Source: Eledone cirrhosa | Lineage: Eukaryota | Assembly: GCA_964016885.1 (NCBI GenBank) | Contig: OZ024742.1 | Span: 248,372,001-248,436,000 of the forward strand | Length of the DNA stretch: 64,000 bases | Direction: 5' to 3' | In this document: positions 5,981 to 63,400 of the stretch, piece after piece | Layout: every line of letters begins with the position of its first letter | Position numbering within the stretch: position 1 is the stretch's first letter | Position numbers and translations under genes: made by a program | Notes under the pieces: model-generated | The model's input: the letters and a program-made list of their open reading frames with translations, nothing else | Told to the model about the DNA's origin: nothing | The model's database searches: none

Positions 5981-6955
<975 letters not shown>

Positions 6956-16668: not shown

Positions 16669-16723
16669 ACTGCTATATATATTTCGGTGACAGCCATCTT
16701 TGGCTGTGACCTCTTCAGGCAGT
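16669..16723 (-). ncRNA. Minimal type I hammerhead motif
   Basis: ACTGC-CTGAAGA-ggtcacagcc aaagat ggctgtcacc-GAAA-tatata-TA^-GCAGT. Confidence 0.88.
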
Positions 16724-16848
16724 CCGAATTAGTGTGGTATAGGCAAGTACATATGTTGTTGAGGTGTATAATTTTGTCAATACTCTGATATGCCCAGTTC
16801 CTGGTTGGGTTGTTATTTCATTGAGGAACTGGAATCATATGATTCCAG

Positions 16849-17680
16849 TTCAAAAATTGGGTATATTGTCTCAAAAATTGGGTATTTTGTTTCAAAAATT
16901 GGGTATTTTGTTTAAAACATTAGGTATATTGTTTCAAAAATTGGGTATATTGTTTCAAAAATTGGGTATTTTGTTTAAAAAATTGGGTATATTGTTTCAA
17001 AAATTGGGTATTTTGTTTCAAAAATTGGGTATTTTGTTTCAAAAATTGGGTATTTTGTTTAAAAAATTGGGTATATTGTTTCAAAGATTGGGTATATTGT
17101 TTCAAAAATTGGGTATTTTGTTTAAAAAATTGGGTAAATTGTTTCAAAAATTGGGTATTTTGTTTAAAAAATTGGGTATATTGTTTCAAAAATTGGGTAT
17201 TTTGTTTCAAAAATTGGGTATTTTGTTTAAAAAATTGGGTATATTGTTTCAAAAATTGGGTATCTTGTTTAAAAAATTGGGTATATTGTTTCAAAAATTG
17301 GGTATATTGTTTCAAAAATTGGGTATATTGTTTCAAAAATTGGGTATTTTGTTTCAAAGATTGGGTATATTGTTTCAAAAATTGGGTATATTGTTTCAAA
17401 AATTGGGTATATTGTTTCAAAAATTGGGTATATTGTTTCAAAAATTGGGTATATTGTTTCAAAAATTGAGTATATTGTTTCAAAAATTGGGTATTTTGTT
17501 TCAAAAATTGGGTATATTGTTTCAAAAATTGGGTATATTGTTTCAAAAATTGGGTATATTGTTTCAAAAATTGGGTATATTGTTTCAAAAATTGGGTATA
17601 TTGTTTCGTAAAATTGGGTATATTGTTTCAAAAATTGGGTATATTGTTTCAAAAATTGGGTATTTTGTTTCAAAAATTAA
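16849..17680. repeat. 21-bp minisatellite, about 39 units, consensus CAAAAATTGGGTATATTGTTT
   Basis: Direct tandem units with few variant positions. Confidence 0.97.
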
Positions 17681-17759
17681 AACCGTATTCTTTCAACAAA
17701 ATATTTCAAAAGTTAAATATTTTGATAATTTTCAGTGCGTTGTTATCAACAAAATTATC

Positions 17760-17932
17760 ATGCGGTGGATTGGCAGTATCGGTAGAGGGTCGGACGCCAT
17801 GCTTTGACGCATAGTCTTACGGCCCTTGCCATTCTGAGTTCAAATCCCATCGAGGTTAACTTTGACTTTCATCCTTACGAGGTCGATAAAATAAAGTACC
17901 TGTAATACACTGGATTTGTGCCAAATGTAGAA
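17760..17932 (+). mobile_element. SINE, same family
   Basis: Same head and core. Confidence 0.85.
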
Positions 17933-18897: not shown

Positions 18898-18941
<44 letters not shown>

Positions 18942-19534
18942 TAAAAGGAAAAGAAAATGCTGACAAATTTTTCCCAGTGAAAAATAGTTTAATTAGGAAT
19001 AAGTATAAATTAGTAATAAGTATTGGTTAGTATTCAGTTTTAGTTTTAAGTTTTTACCGGTTGCGCATTTCTAATGCTTTTCAAAAATAATTTTGAGATA
19101 GAGCGCTCGTGATGTTTGCTCTAATCTGATCAGTTTTGGAAATTCTTCCTGCTTTATGTGAAAAAAGTGGCTCCAGAGGTATTAAGATTTAGTTGGTTGT
19201 TGAATGTCATGTGAAAGATTACTATAAATTTCGCGCCAATTCGTGTTGCAGAAATTCTTGTAGTCAAAACAATTTTGATTGGTCGGTAGAGGTCACGTGA
19301 ATGTTAAAAATTGATCTTGCGCAAAATGTAGGTTTGTCGAAGCGTATCCTTTTTCGCCTGATTGAGAAGTCACTGAAAAATAAGTATTTTAAGACAAATA
19401 TGTGTGTGTGTGTGTGTGTAGCGGAGTGGTTCGTGGTAGAGGGAATAAATTCGGTCAGTAGGATTGTGTGTGTACGTGTGTGGGGGATATTTTAACATGT
19501 TGAAAGATATTTTCAGCTCTTGTCTTATATGGAG

Positions 19535-19572
<38 letters not shown>

Positions 19573-20338
19573 CTCTTTGTATGTTAGTGTACGCGTGTGT
19601 ATGTGTATGTGTGTGTGTATATATGTGTGTATGTGTGTGTGTGTGGATGGACCAATATTTTTGTGATACTGGTAAAATGGTGTACATTATTCCATATTTT
19701 CAGTAATTTTCAAAAATGATTCTCTCAAAAGAACATAAAAAACATCAATAATAAAAGATCTGAAATGATGTGTGAGTGTTCAGATTGTACGTACTGCAAG
19801 GGGAATCCATTAGGCCCTGCCGTATGGGAATACTTGAATACAAATATGTATGTGCCCATCAGTGTGCAATGCATGTGTGCGTTTATGTACGTGTGTGTGT
19901 CGGCACGTTTAAATCTATAAACATCAAAAGGTATGCAAATTTGTGTATATTTGTGTTGCACCATAGAACATGTGTGTTTACGTATGTCATTGTATTTATA
20001 TGTGGAAAGAAATGTATGTAAGATGTATCCTGATGTAGGTATGTATGTTGACGTGTGTATGTTGTGGGTTCGTCTTAGGGAGAAGTGTTTAGACGGGGTC
20101 CGTATTTGTTAATAAAGTTATCAAGTTATAAAGTTATCTTTAAATTTGTAAATATATATATATATATATATCTGTACATTTAACTGTCGGTCAATCAATG
20201 TTCCTCATTGATTGCAAGATAAATTAACGATGAAGATATAAAAGATACAGAGGCGAAAACCAATCCAAACCAAACAGTTAGTGTGTTTATTAATATTTCG
20301 GCAATATTACAATAATATGACCCTCCCCACATATAACG

Positions 20339-24738: not shown

Positions 24739-27700
24739 GAGCAAACATCACGGACGCTCTATCTCAAAATTATTTTTGAAAAGCATTAGAAATGCGCAAC
24801 CGGTAAAACTTAAAACCAAAACTTAATACTAACCAATACTATTACTAAGTATCACTTATTCCTAATTAAACTATTTTTCACTGTGAACAATTTGTCAGCA
24901 TTTTCTATTCCGTTTACCAATATATATATATATATATACATCTAATCCAATGTCTTCCTCGAGGCTAAACAGGCAGGTTCTTATTCCGTGAGTAAAAGAA
25001 TCCTCCTTCACAGGATGCCAGTCCATCGCAGAGTTATGACCCCAAGTCATTTTCGGCCGAATATACTAACGCTAGATGACATTAAGTGTTTTGCTCCAGA
25101 ACATCACACACAAACTAGTCCAGGAATCAAATCCACAATATTATGATCCTACCACTAGGCTATGCGTCTTCACATTCATGGACACACAAATACAAATATA
25201 CATACATACTTACATATATTAGTAGATAATATATATTGTGACCACCATGTGTCAGCAAAGCCACTATTCGGTAAACTGCCTCAGATAAGTTTAGCGAACA
25301 CTGACATTGCTAACTAGTCCTGGCTATTTTGGATCAATATGAATAAGCCCCCTTATACAAAATTATATATATTGAGTTCTTCCTATTATATTGGCTATGA
25401 AAATTAAAACTCCTCAGCAGTATTCATCTTTTACGATTTTAATAGAAATTATTCAGTATAAAATACAAGGAACGTTTTCTTCAACAAGGCATATAAGCTT
25501 CTGGCAGTTATAAAATATATAATATTCTGAAATCCTGTTCATTTCTCTGAAAATTAATATATGATCTGAAGAGAAGTTCCTTCTAAGTTTTCCTTCTAAG
25601 TTTTGCATATACTCCAAATTTTCATGGAATCAACGATTTATGCCTTCTTCTCAACCCTATTTATACCAATCTATCTGACAATGTCCTCTCTTAGATGTAT
25701 GACGCTTTTTACTTTAAAGTGTTGATATTAACATTTAAATTTTCCATCACAATTTTGAGAAAGACCATTTGTTGAGCTGTGTTTCGAAATGTTAGCTGAA
25801 TAATGAGAAATTTAGTTATATTACTAATTCCTCCAAACTCTTGTTTATTTTCAATATTATTAAAATATCTTAAGTAGTGCATTTTATTTCAGATATGACA
25901 AGGAAAGTTTAAACTCTTCACCAATTTGAGATAATGACAAACGGAAGATATTCTTGGCAAATGGAATGGATTAACCTTTAGTTTTTCTCATTAAGACGCA
26001 TTTTTCCATCACGAAGACAACATTATACACATCCAATGTCGCACACACAGTGGGACAAAGTAGCGACGCCATTACAAGATTATGAACTGTAATTTTGTTT
26101 TAAGGAAATCATGATTCCTTTAAACTAATTAAGTGAAAATGTCTATAAAATTGTAATCTCACCCTGCGGATTTTTCGTGTAAAAATTTAAATATTCTAAT
26201 CAGAAGGAGAGGAATTCTGAATTTTGTTTTGACCAGCCATGTTGCGAATGTGGAGCGAGATTTAACTTAAGATTAGATGATTTTGATTTTCTTTTTAAAG
26301 AAATATTTTTTTCATATCACCGAAAAATATTTTTTCGTATCATATTGATAGAAGATTGTCTGAGATTTTCTGGTAATTACGATAATGAGTCTTTGATTGA
26401 TTAATTCAAATTACGGAACACCATTTTATTAACTTTATCTCTTGCAATATTGTAGAAATAATTAAACATTCTCTATATGAAGTTGCTAGAACCTGTATAA
26501 CATCGTAGAAAACATAACAACGGAGCCTATTTTGCCTGATTGTTTCAATGTTTTCTAAAGTCATTTCTATTTTGTTAAACGAATCGCCCACTCATTAGAA
26601 CACTTTTATAATTAGCTTTTAATCTACTTAGGATGAAAATTAATCAAAATGTTGGTAATATATTTCCTTCTCATGTGATTGATTCCTTTATTTCTTGCTT
26701 TTAATATCCCATTTCTATCCCTTTGCAATACATCACAGACACTCACACTTGCATTTACACACACACACCTACACACACATACTCGCATGCACACACACAC
26801 ACACATACACATATGTATATATATGTGTGTGTACACATATACAGATAGATAAATAGAGAGAGCAGAGTGCTAGACAACTCGACTGGTAACAAAGGAGCAT
26901 CATCTTCCTCATAAAAACTGTGATATAATTCCACTTTTGATGAATGTCTAAACATTTCAATCTACAATATGTTTGTAATTCTCAATTATTTCTCAGTTGT
27001 CACGTTGAACTAAGATCTGGGAAGGAACACTATAACAATCACTACTAAACGACGATTTGCACACGAATATTAGTGAAATATATATTAAGCTCCGCCTTAA
27101 TTTTACAAAGACGAACGAAACACGATGTAAAATGAAATAATACTTTTCTAATATTTATTCCGACCGAGGAAGACATATTGTTTCTGCCGATAATAACAGA
27201 AAAAAAAAGATAGGAATTGGAATTACAGAAGGAAAACAAAACAAAATGTAGAATAGAACTCACTGATAGTCAATAAAGAAAGGCGTGAAGATTGGATTTG
27301 AGAATCACAAACTAACGACAAAGAATTTAATTGATTACATTTTTGTTCTGGAAACAAATAAATAATAACAAAAATAAATTCGCTTAAAGAAATTTTCTTT
27401 AAAGTCTCTCGTTATTTATCTTCATTTAGTAATCATAAATAAACGTAACCGTAAATAACATTATGTGATGATGAATTTTTTGTTACATCGATCTACCTCG
27501 GTTTTTTGTTAAGGACAGAAAGTTATGATGGAACATATGGAAGATCTTAATTCATAACGTATGCTAAACAGAACTTACCTAAGTGAACGTAGGTTTAATG
27601 GATTTCATATCTATCTTTTTGAAATAAATAAAATCTTATATAAGTATGGCTATTCGTGATCTAGTTTTATTTGTGTCTGTGTGAATGTGTGTGTGTGTGA

Positions 27701-29064: not shown

Positions 29065-29127
<63 letters not shown>

Positions 29128-29155
29128 AAAGAATAGAGGTGTAACACACAAGTTA

Positions 29156-29689
29156 TTATATATTGGTAAACGGAATAGAAAATGCTGACAAATTGTTCAC
29201 AGTTGAAAAATGGTTTAATTAGGAATAAAAGAGTATTAGTGATTGTATGGGTTAGTATTCAGTTGTGGTTTTAAGTTTTTAAGTTTTTACCGGTTGCGCA
29301 TTTCTAAATGCTTTTCAAAAATAATTTTGAGATAGAGTGTCCGTGCTGTTAGCTCATGGTAGAGATGGTGAAATAGGCCATGTTGATGACGATACTGGAG
29401 GTGTTGGTGGTGCATGTGTCGCTGTTGCTGTTGATAGTGGTGGTGATGACGACAATGACGATGATGGTGATGATAAAGATAAAGATGGTATTGAATAAAT
29501 GAACAAACAGCACGGACACTCTATCTCAAAATTATTTTTGAAAAGCATTTAGAAATGCGCAACCGGTAAAAATTTAAAAACTTAAAACCACAACTGAATA
29601 CTAACCCATACAATCACTAATACTCTTTTATTCCTAATTAAACCATTTTTCAACTGTGAACAATTTGTCAGCATTTTCTATTCCGTTTA

Positions 29690-29697
<8 letters not shown>
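29156..29697. repeat. Inverted arms of about 195 bp around a 150-bp copy of 30652-30801
   Basis: Arms 29156-29353 and 29504-29697. Solo arm copies at 18938-19121 and 24739-24921. Confidence 0.92.
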
Positions 29698-29736
<39 letters not shown>

Positions 29737-30156
29737 AATTAGTATATCTACCAACATATGTATACAGATGCATACCTATGTTAGCAAATATATATGTTTT
29801 GTCTTAATAACTTTGTGGTTCTATGCAAGGGGGCTAGATTCCAAGACATTGAAAAATTCACTGCCTACTTGGTCAAGTGGCAAATTCAAAAGAATCAATC
29901 ACGTGACACTGAGGTTAATCCGCGAGGAGTGGGGGTGCTGGAATCTAGCCCGCTCGCTTTTTTCCATCCACTGAATTATTTTTATATAAGTTCACAGTGT
30001 CCCCGCATTGCCTGGAAGCTTAGCTGAGAATAGACGTAAGGCTTCTCTATGGATACGCTCCGTAACCATATTTATCCCCTTACAGAAACTAATTAGTTGG
30101 AGTGAAATTTTAGTAAGTCAATTTTCATAACTTTCTTATTTCATAACTTTCATATA

Positions 30157-30220
<64 letters not shown>

Positions 30221-30401
30221 TGTGTACCTATTTATGAATTACTCAATGGCGGGAATCAAAGTGCCATGGCCCATTCGAAGGCTTTCAAAGTCTAATAGGA
30301 GCGGAGAAGTAACGTTACTTCTGGCCATACATATGGTATGCACTCAATTTAGCTAAATGACAATTGGTCTCTTTAAAAGGCATATCCAAATACCAAATAA
30401 T

Positions 30402-30570
30402 TGTTACTACTTTTATCACAAGGCCAGTAATTACTGGTACTTTATTTTATCGACCCCGTAAGGATGAAAGGCAAAGTAAACCTCTGTGGGATTTGAACTC
30501 AGACCGTAAATGGACGTAACTATGCTGGAAAGCATGGCACCCGACTCTCTACCGATACTGCCAATCCACT
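30402..30570 (-). mobile_element. SINE with about 22-bp target-site duplication
   Basis: GCATATCCAAATACCAAATAAT occurs at 30380 and 30571. Confidence 0.88.
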
Positions 30571-31294
30571 GCATATCCAAATACCAAATAATGCAAAATA
30601 ATTAGAATATATTCAGATGATGATGGTGTTTGTACTAGTCTTTTATGATAGTCATGGTAGAGATGGTGAAATAGGCCATGTTGATGACGATACTGGAGGT
30701 GTTGGTGGTGCATGTGTCGCTGTTGCTGTTGATAGTGGTGGTGATGACGACAATGACGATGATAGTGATGATAAAGATAAAGATGGTATTGAATAAATGA
30801 ATTGTAAAAAAAAAAAAAACAAGAGAAATAATGAGGTGGTAGAATGGTGTGAGTGACGAATGTTGGAATGATGGTAGGATGATGTGAGAGAATAGCAGAA
30901 ATGAGGAATAATTATGTATATGTTGATTGCAGAACACAAAATTTAGTTGAAATACACAGCGAGGAAAATGTAAGTTATATATGTTAGATTCTTGACACTA
31001 ATAACTACATTGATGAGCATTTCTGTATAAACTAATGTGCATATATATTTGTAGCAATGGCGGTAATTTGGGTGGTGGCGATTGCCTGTTGGAGAGGCGG
31101 CGTTGTATGAAGGAATATTTGAACACGATTTGTGACAAGAAAATTGATACACATGCACACATACGTACACACATACATAGACAGACATACACACACACAT
31201 AGATTTATATGTATATATATATAAACAGTTTCAATGCTCTGACATAGCATTAAATGTACCACCGGTTGAAGAATGAAGCATATGCGACATACAG

Positions 31295-51866: not shown

Positions 51867-52475
51867 CGAAACATGAAATAATGTCTCTTGCTCAATAATG
51901 TGTCAACGAATTGAAGTCACAACTCACGATTGCAAGTCCAACTCTTTACACACACACAAACACACATATATGTACGTATATACATACACATATATGTGGG
52001 ATGGTGTTGTGTGTGTGTATATGTGTGTTTGTGTGTGTGTGAGTATGTATGTGCGAAGTCAATTGTTTTAGAGGTTAGAGCGTTGGGCTTGCAATTGGGA
52101 GGTTGCGCGTTCAATTATCGGAGAAGGTGATGTATCCTACAGAACGACACGTTATTTAATCTTGCTCCAGTTTCTATATATAAATATACATATTAATATT
52201 TGTATATTGACAAGTATATGAATGTATGTATAGTATATTTGGTAATATACTGCATGTTTAATTAAAAACATTTTGAAGACTATTCGTTATATGACTTACT
52301 TATTCTCGGCAAAAGCAAAGGAGAGTAATCGACAGTCCTGTATACATCGCTGTTTCAGAGCACCATTACTAATATATATATGTAGATGTGTGCGGGGGGG
52401 GGGGATATGTGTATGTGTATATATATGTGTGTGTGTGTGTGTGTGTGAGTGTGCGTATGTATATATATATATATA

Positions 52476-53236
52476 TGATGAGAAACGTGTCCCGCATGTG
52501 CAACCCCGAAGAACTAGAGAGACACATACGATACTTCATCCACCGTATGCTGTTCTCTGGTTACAATCAGAGAGATAAAATCAGAGTGTATAGAGGAGCC
52601 AGAACCAAATGTGAAAAAATGGTAAATAATGACACAAATGGGACCTGCCCCTTTTATAGGAGCAAATTTCGGAATAGAATAGAAAGAACTAGGAATAAGG
52701 CTAATAGAATAAACTCATGGTATGATAGCAATAAATACCGGAGTGTGATGTTCATCGATACAACCCCTAGAAGTGAATTAGCTTACAAATTTAGAAGGGC
52801 CCTAGACAAACATAAACTCAATATTAAGATAGTAGAAAGACCAGGTACCTCTGTAAAAACATTTATTAGCAAGACATACCCTTTTCAAAGACCCCCCTGT
52901 ATAGAAAAGAAATGTATAACCTGTAAATTAAGCCCCCATATTAACTGTAAAACTAGAAATGTAGTATATAGCATAAGATGTACTGAAGGACAATGTAGAG
53001 ACAAAAATATAGTGTACATAGGTGAGACAGCTCGTAGTGTAGGAGAACGGATAAATGAACACTGGCGAGACCTTCAAGATAGTAAAGAATCATCTGTACT
53101 CTACCAACATGCTAAAATAGAACATAAGGGTAAATTAGAGAACATAGAAATAAAAGTAGAATCTACACACAGAAAAGACGCAATGTTTAGACAAATCACA
53201 GAGGCAATAAACATTAAAAAATTACAACCAAAATGA
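52476..53236 (+). CDS. 5'-truncated Penelope-like element ORF: RT C-terminal linker, Cys motif, GIY-YIG endonuclease
   Basis: CIEKKCITC..NCKTRNVVYSIRC..VYIGETARSVGERINEH..RQITEAINIK. Open frame begins right after a (TA)n run; the upstream part of the 52388 ORF is microsatellite. Confidence 0.85.
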
Positions 53237-62795: not shown

Positions 62796-62972
62796 CCGTT
62801 GGTGATGTGGTGGTAGTAGCAGCCAAAATAGTAGCAGTTGGGTTGTCGCCTTTCGCTCTCTGACCCCCCCCCCATATATATATATAAGAAGAAATTGAAA
62901 GATGGTTAGAAAAGTTCCATGTATTTTATTATGCTCACAAGTGTCTTTTTTAAGCTTCATATCATGTCTCCC

Positions 62973-63043
62973 TATTTTATCTGATGAGAACGCAAATATC
63001 GTCCCTGGATGATATTTGTTTTTGAAATGCGCATAATAAAATA
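62973..63043 (+). ncRNA. Type I hammerhead ribozyme motif, intact core
   Basis: TATTTTAT-CTGATGA-[gaacgcaaatatcgtcc ct ggatgatatttgttttt]-GAAA-tgcgca-TA^-ATAAAATA. 8-bp stem I and palindromic stem III. Confidence 0.88.
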
Positions 63044-63400
63044 CATGGAACTTTTCTAACCATCTTTTAATTTCTTCTTATATATACTCCAGTCCAATAA
63101 ACTGTTGAGTGCTACTTATCCGATATTTGCATTGCTTTATTGTGCTACAATAAAACTCACCTCCGACACACACAAATATATATATATAACAAAGGAATTG
63201 TGGTAAGGAACCAAATGGACCATAACGCACCAGAGTACTCAATACTTAGGGTATTAGAGTGGGAAATAGGAAAACGTATGACCCCGACGGCAGAGCTCAA
63301 TGTATATATATATATATATATATATACATTATCACTGATGAGGGACTCATTTTATAACATGTTATCCATGTGCAACCATGCAGTATTCTGCTCCCCATTT

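Follow-up and report, generated by a model that had tools for sequence, protein, structure and literature searches.

An inverted, 5'-truncated copy with a tail of 30 to 40 bp at one end is typical of Penelope-like elements (PLEs) as described in PMC8557442 and PMC3846280, and the tail extension is also described in PMC11167929. According to the latter source, a PLE protein in purified form can extend both strands of the DNA, using two start sites on the RNA, the interval between which corresponds to the tail. Self-priming was proposed for the origin of the inverted structures in PMC3846280, and PMC11167929 presents the steps past first-strand synthesis as unvalidated. In a rotifer, host DNA is reported between Penelope repeats in other arrangements, including unique spacers before a 3' pLTR (PMC3846280). 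For LINE-1, 22 templated insertions were reported among approximately 3,600 (bioRxiv 10.1101/2024.08.27.596794); they are shorter than 250 bp and typically copied from ≤15 bp from the site, and three more such cases are given in PMC11702581. Primary tracts made by Pol theta rarely exceed 10 bp and usually originate within 30 bp (PMC7165422).

The locus described here lies in a 64,000-nt window (C3:248,372,001-248,436,000), the whole stretch of DNA that was analyzed, in a 3.0-Gb genome rich in microsatellites. The insertion, its donor and two older relatives comprise the following features.

29068 to 29123, no strand: left (TA)n target tract, read from the sequence
29124 to 29157, minus strand: 34-nt Penelope tail extension, on the left arm only, read from the sequence
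29158 to 29355, minus strand: left arm, a 5'-truncated terminal repeat (pLTR) of a Penelope-like element assigned to the Neptune/Nematis type
29284 to 29321, minus strand: putative minimal hammerhead-like motif on the left arm, mirroring that of the right arm, placed by arm register
29354 to 29503, plus strand: templated spacer, a 150-bp direct copy of 30652-30801
29504 to 29699, plus strand: right arm, a 5'-truncated pLTR without a tail, delimited by comparison with the left arm
29535 to 29572, plus strand: putative minimal hammerhead-like motif of the right arm, predicted from its fold
29694 to 29733, no strand: right (TA)n target tract, read from the sequence
30652 to 30801, plus strand: donor, host DNA that begins 960 bp beyond the tail-less arm
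18932 to 20117, minus strand: older, longer truncated copy of the same family, outside the event
24739 to 24919, plus strand: older solo arm lacking a tail, within a (TA)n/(CA)n tract, outside the event

From 5' to 3', the insertion (29068-29733) consists of (TA)n, tail, minus-strand arm, spacer, plus-strand arm, and (TA)n. The first-pass annotation reported near-identical inverted arms around 29354-29503, and closer comparison confirms this: the arms differ at 2 of 196 positions (29352 to 29157 on the minus strand versus 29504 to 29699 on the plus strand), and spacer and donor agree at 149 of 150, the sole mismatch being G at 29466 versus A at 30764. The left arm was correctly recognized but drawn too short, since it reaches 29124 and includes the 34-nt tail that is absent from the right arm. 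Its 5' end coincides with a truncation hot spot of the arm family, and the final bases of the right arm merge into (TA)n. Two further copies had been described as solo arms; the one at 24739 is a true solo arm, whereas the one at 18938, which is 83% identical to the left arm, continues for approximately 1.2 kb into the element.

On sequence comparison, the arm "cassettes" are known Penelope-like pLTRs. The left arm with its tail matches the arm of an ORF-bearing copy (L045) at 230 of 233 positions, one arm 25-mer has 4,350 exact matches in the genome, and long arm pairs enclose an ORF in which RVT_1 is accompanied by a GIY-YIG domain at the C terminus. In L045 (3918-6269), a copy split into two frames, Pfam detected RVT_1 (E = 2.6e-7) and C-terminal GIY-YIG (E = 2e-6), and the translation contains DKG before the RT, a Cx4CxxC linker upstream of GIY-YIG, and CCHH in the endonuclease. 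The linker and CCHH together rule out Poseidon (no linker) and Hydra (CxCX5C, no CCHH). The criterion given in PMC8557442 for Neptune or Nematis is a CX2-5CxxC linker upstream of GIY-YIG, and by the motif definitions published there the element is assigned to the EN+ Penelope-like elements, of Neptune or Nematis type. Two arms placed head to head, only one of them with a 34-nt tail, correspond to the textbook form; across the 163 loci collected, a single tail was present in 61 of 64 complete pairs, two tails in 3 of 64, and none in 0 of 64.

Other repeats are present in the window. At 6070-6847, a different PLE-like family has the classic partial-tandem and short inverted layout between (TA)n tracts, with repeats of 216 bp at 99% identity and an inverted 80-bp end. 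An open frame at 52373-53233 ends, by eye, in a GIY-YIG-like domain with a Zn-finger linker and is assigned by these motifs to the 3' part of another PLE family. A 21-bp minisatellite array of approximately 50 units occupies 16700-17780.

The right-arm hammerhead-like motif has a U3-A8 core variant, of a kind described in PMC4209133, with helix II at 29545-29558, a palindromic helix III (ACCGGT), and a noncanonical C at core position 13. As judged by eye, covariation of helices I and II is present in a related pLTR at L021. No Rfam hammerhead was found among the 150 of 269 matches listed for the window, which were subthreshold and driven by microsatellites. The arm motif GAAATGCGCA had been likened to the 3' half of a hammerhead at 62973. 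The likeness holds in kind but fails in register: within the arm, GAAATGC forms the 3' strand of helix II, and at 62973 it makes up the core and helix III. A direct relationship between the arm motif and the 62973 core was rejected. The latter hammerhead has a canonical core (CTGATGA...GAAA, palindromic helix III) and lies inside an inverted-repeat insertion (62897-63075) of a family other than that of the arms.

The donor is continuous with its own, similar flanking DNA, and it is therefore the original copy. A genome search with the spacer, in which 40 of 136 candidates were scored, returned two local copies (100% and 99%); the remaining scored matches were partial (71 to 93%) and in GAT/GGT-rich low-complexity DNA, with no close nonlocal copy among them. 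Besides misassembly, the first-pass annotation had set two readings against its own, a dispersed repeat and a constant part of the family. The latter two were rejected, the former because only the local donor matches closely among the scored candidates and the latter because host DNA occurs in 0 of 29 unselected pairs. A MITE or other DNA transposon with terminal inverted repeats and constant cargo was also rejected, since the spacer has no close match except the local donor among the scored candidates; the arms belong to an RT-encoding element with variable 5' truncation, unlike a MITE with cargo. The further proposal that these insertions offer a route for onward capture of local sequence is not supported, because the spacer's only close match among the scored candidates is the local donor. 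At the left junction, the TC microhomology noted earlier is present at 29354-29355, common to arm and donor, and can be read as 5 of 6 bases with a one-base bulge; the right junction of the pair has no exact microhomology. The donor ends just past an AATAAA, with a 15-nt run of A starting 4 nt farther on (30793-30820), an arrangement that may be due to chance or to an old retroposed 3' end.

The frequency of such capture was assessed in an unselected sample of 60 loci from the first 100 arm 25-mer matches, which included 29 complete pairs. No flank-derived DNA was found between the arms of any of these 29; ten further pairs were left out because a gap of 20 nt has no room for it, and their inclusion (0 of 39) gives an upper bound of approximately 7.5%. 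At ordinary junctions, the arms were joined directly, by way of a GATC palindrome or some other microhomology, or were bridged by element-derived patches. An enriched screen with seven junction patterns (three with at least 100 matches) aimed at one truncation hot spot provided 64 candidates chosen by eye, plus one locus from the first arm search. Local capture was recognized in the window pair and at four further loci, three through the junction screens and one through the first arm search, all five cases being picked by eye. Captured pieces are 23 to 197 bp long, with donors 135 to 960 bp away. The four further loci are as follows.

L115: 197 bp, 98% identity, donor 184 bp away, 1-nt microhomology at the tail-side junction
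L121: pieces of 23 and 28 nt, 100% identity, donors 528 and 864 bp away, with TGA and AATT as linking microhomologies
L126: 69 bp, 98.6% identity, donor 135 bp away, second arm at most vestigial
L156: 75 bp, 100% identity, inverted, donor 795 bp away, both arms tailed

The longest local match at L121 is 26 nt, versus ≤14 nt in 200 shuffles; 49 of the 69 nt captured at L126 belong to a repeat present at 8 other loci. A strict 16-mer test found local 16-mers in 4 of 64 pairs (the window pair, L115, L121, and L156), and the spacers of these four had no match of at least 95% over at least 22 nt in 127 other sequences. A generic scan for TA-flanked inverted pairs of any family (93 sequences, 974 kb) found 46 pairs, 32 of them with a gap of at least 15 nt, and recovered the window pair and L115; a third flag, L123, arose from wide pairing, and four pairs with unique gaps were rejected as microsatellite filled or as a different element. 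Local capture is recurrent and rare, affecting probably approximately 1% of pairs or fewer.

The remaining candidates comprised element patches, (TA)n joins, and single arms joined to unique DNA or other repeats. Single arms joined directly to unique DNA (L110, L114, L117, L125, L152, L160, L165, and others) have no donor and no facing partner within about 15 kb, and they are possibly completed microhomology joins with target-site deletion; for seven such arms, neither was found in the next 10 kb per side, and a deletion is likely. At L124, L130, and L147 the second arm is little more than the tail (23 to 43 nt), consistent with a very short tail-primed cDNA. L059 (C1:3,570,7xx) has a tail arm followed by a perfect 434-bp nonelement palindrome centered on (TA)n and then 19 bp of a second arm; the palindrome is either a foldback duplication of the flank or a long-read artifact. 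At L088 and L134, the arms border near-perfect tandem arrays that switch orientation, with units of 468 bp and 310 bp.

Donors were sought symmetrically, for approximately 5 kb on each side. For the window pair, L115, L121, and L126, the copy is in direct orientation and its donor is found past the tail-less arm. The probability of three further cases falling by chance in the same one of four geometries is 1/64, or 1/16 without L126, in either case for a small number of loci. The side rule is inapplicable to L156 because both of its arms are tailed. The direct, opposite-side geometry is what would be expected if the tail-arm cDNA annealed to the 3' strand exposed at the other chromosome end, although each geometry has one 3'-overhang reading and the sequence therefore cannot tell which cDNA end jumped.

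Nonlocal DNA was captured at the same junction. The pair at L154 (C2:353,304,5xx-353,304,9xx) encloses 168 bp of an abundant tRNA-like SINE, near full length, whose best copy within 25 kb on either side is just 87% identical. Its orientation, with the SINE sense presumably as given by Pol III box motifs, is that expected for cDNA extended from the tail arm, and L154 is likely to represent a jump of the RT onto SINE RNA. At L164 (C27:6,648,1xx), a two-tailed pair encloses 110 bp with 95% identity to L170 (C8:10,571,272-10,571,389); the match on C8 lies directly after a stop codon, and the insert is a probable 3' UTR from another chromosome. A piece of the element ORF was patched into the junction of L145. 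The SINE and UTR pieces would have come from RNA. Foreign spacers occur in 2 of 3 two-tailed pairs, which hints that the arms of such pairs derive from two RNAs.

The first-pass annotation proposed that, during insertion, the polymerase switched from the element to local chromosomal DNA and back. The four other local copies support the switch, but "and back" is too simple: the arms are opposed and end at the two different 3' termini of the element (with and without the tail), and they are therefore better read as two separately primed cDNAs with a local copy patched between them. The presence of foreign DNA between arms also means that a simple foldback cannot be the source. In the preferred explanation, held with moderate confidence, the 150 bp are a copy of host DNA approximately 1 kb away, made by the element's own RT while two separately primed cDNAs were joined. 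The element endonuclease would cut both (TA)n strands, and each chromosome end would prime one cDNA, the distal start site giving the tail arm and the proximal one the tail-less arm. Synthesis of both cDNAs would stop by run-off close to the 5' end of a short RNA, and their free 3' ends would usually be joined through a few bases of microhomology. In rare cases, the end of the tail-arm cDNA would first pair, by TC or by 5 of 6 bases with a bulge, with the 3' strand left exposed at the opposite chromosome end, and in the window pair it would have been extended by 148 nt, released, and joined to the other cDNA. The element RT is the most likely enzyme for the copying, since these junctions also contain pieces for which RNA templates are the best explanation.

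More tentatively, the two independent cDNAs may have fixed roles, with the tail-bearing cDNA as the one that jumps, its end being held by a telomerase-like RT and priming on ≤1 kb of exposed opposite DNA or on SINE or mRNA. If so, the captured pieces constitute a genome-wide fossil record of the unseen joining step in Penelope integration and speak against self-priming foldback as a general explanation for the inverted repeats.

A possible but less probable alternative with the same event and timing is that a host repair polymerase, through Pol theta-type end joining or SDSA-like synthesis, copied local DNA while bridging the cDNA-extended ends. PMC7165422 describes two TMEJ classes, direct copies made from the opposite resected end and inverted ones made by snap-back, with serial pieces and microhomology as typical, and L121 and L156 may be compared with these. 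An SDSA-like process was proposed for templated insertions of LINE-1 (bioRxiv 10.1101/2024.08.27.596794). Against this, single tracts of 69 to 197 nt from 135 to 960 bp away are atypical for Pol theta, and the SINE, UTR, and element-ORF patches indicate that RT jumping was probably already available at the junction. Because tract lengths and distances exceed the Pol theta norm and RNA-like patches occur at the junction, copying by the element RT is favored over copying by a host polymerase.

The RT could instead have jumped onto a nascent host transcript crossing the locus, which would make the template RNA and not chromosomal DNA. A local transcript would be readily available where the element inserts, and L154 and L164 are probable captures of RNA; however, such a mechanism predicts no link between the tail and the side or orientation of the donor, whereas all 4 of the 4 side-definable cases share one geometry, and no host exon was identified among the window ORFs listed. 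A nascent transcript is therefore an unlikely template. Later entry of the spacer, by break repair at the fragile center of a preexisting palindromic insertion, is considered very unlikely. Near-perfect palindromes of approximately 400 bp are plausible break sites, and several pairs (L063 and L081) have lost most of one arm, but both arms of the window pair are intact up to the normal truncation points of the family, divergence between spacer and donor (1/150) is similar to that between the arms (2/196), and later repair gives no reason for the tail-linked geometry.

Read evidence bears on the assembly. Contigs from three short-read runs (X1 to X3, sample S1), including a 649-nt contig that covers 30546-31196 and the donor, pass unbroken through the donor and contain neither the junction nor the empty site, which contig simplification, the other haplotype, or another individual could explain. 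RAD-seq run X21 had no coverage of the donor. The contigs differ from the assembly at two further sites, and at the variant site they carry G in X1 and A in X2 and X3; the spacer G allele is considered a real variant because G occurs in an X1 contig. An assembly artifact at a hairpin-forming repeat is therefore hardly credible, even though palindromes trouble assemblers and none of the three runs of sample S1 gave a junction-spanning contig, because the spacer allele is found in X1 reads and four other loci, at three other or distant scaffold positions, have the same structure with microhomology junctions.

Comparison with described systems places the arms among Neptune/Nematis EN+ elements, with which they share an RT with C-terminal GIY-YIG, a Zn-finger linker, and microsatellite targeting, as well as head-to-head arms, a one-sided tail, and, putatively, a minimal hammerhead-like motif (PMC8557442 and PMC3846280). 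The junctions that these two sources describe for published EN+ elements are palindromic or overlapping, and host genes framed by pLTRs are described as well; a copy of neighboring DNA at a head-to-head junction is not among the structures in their relevant sections. No prior report of locally templated DNA at such a Penelope junction was found in the open-licence PMC and bioRxiv literature, a scope outside which older Drosophila virilis papers fall; bioRxiv 10.64898/2026.07.22.740005 contributed nothing further. PAc Poseidon in vitro is similar in that it cuts and extends both strands and has a tail delimited by two RT start sites (PMC11167929), but it belongs to a different clade, and the relevant part of that study is silent on cDNA joining. 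Direct and inverted local copies, short microhomologies, and serial pieces resemble Pol theta TINS (PMC7165422). These are usually 3 to 30 bp long with a donor within approximately 30 bp, versus up to 197 bp and up to 960 bp away here; only the L121 pieces are as short, yet their donors are 528 and 864 bp away.

For change in the host genome, the captures are of minor importance: they are local duplications, both rare and short, and the genome search with the window's spacer gave no sign of further spread. Their interest lies in the one-sided tail, which labels the two cDNAs, so that the scars open the step at which Penelope cDNAs are joined to testing; in a genome that carries near-identical copies by the thousands, they could show which end jumps, on which strand, and how much target DNA is exposed. 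The closest counterpart is LINE-1, in which the duplication of nearby genomic DNA is likewise rare and shorter than 250 bp (here 150, 197, 23 plus 28, 69, and 75 bp) and in which twin priming with template switching gives chimeras with other RNAs joined between oppositely primed cDNAs, as probably here (bioRxiv 10.1101/2024.08.27.596794 and PMC11702581). Unlike in LINE-1, donors lie 135 to 960 bp away rather than typically within 15 bp, the element is of another class, and the tail tells the two cDNAs apart, making a side bias readable. The element, its layout, and the type of scar (from LINE-1) are thus known, while its occurrence in Penelope, the longer reach, and perhaps a tail-linked polarity are possibly new.
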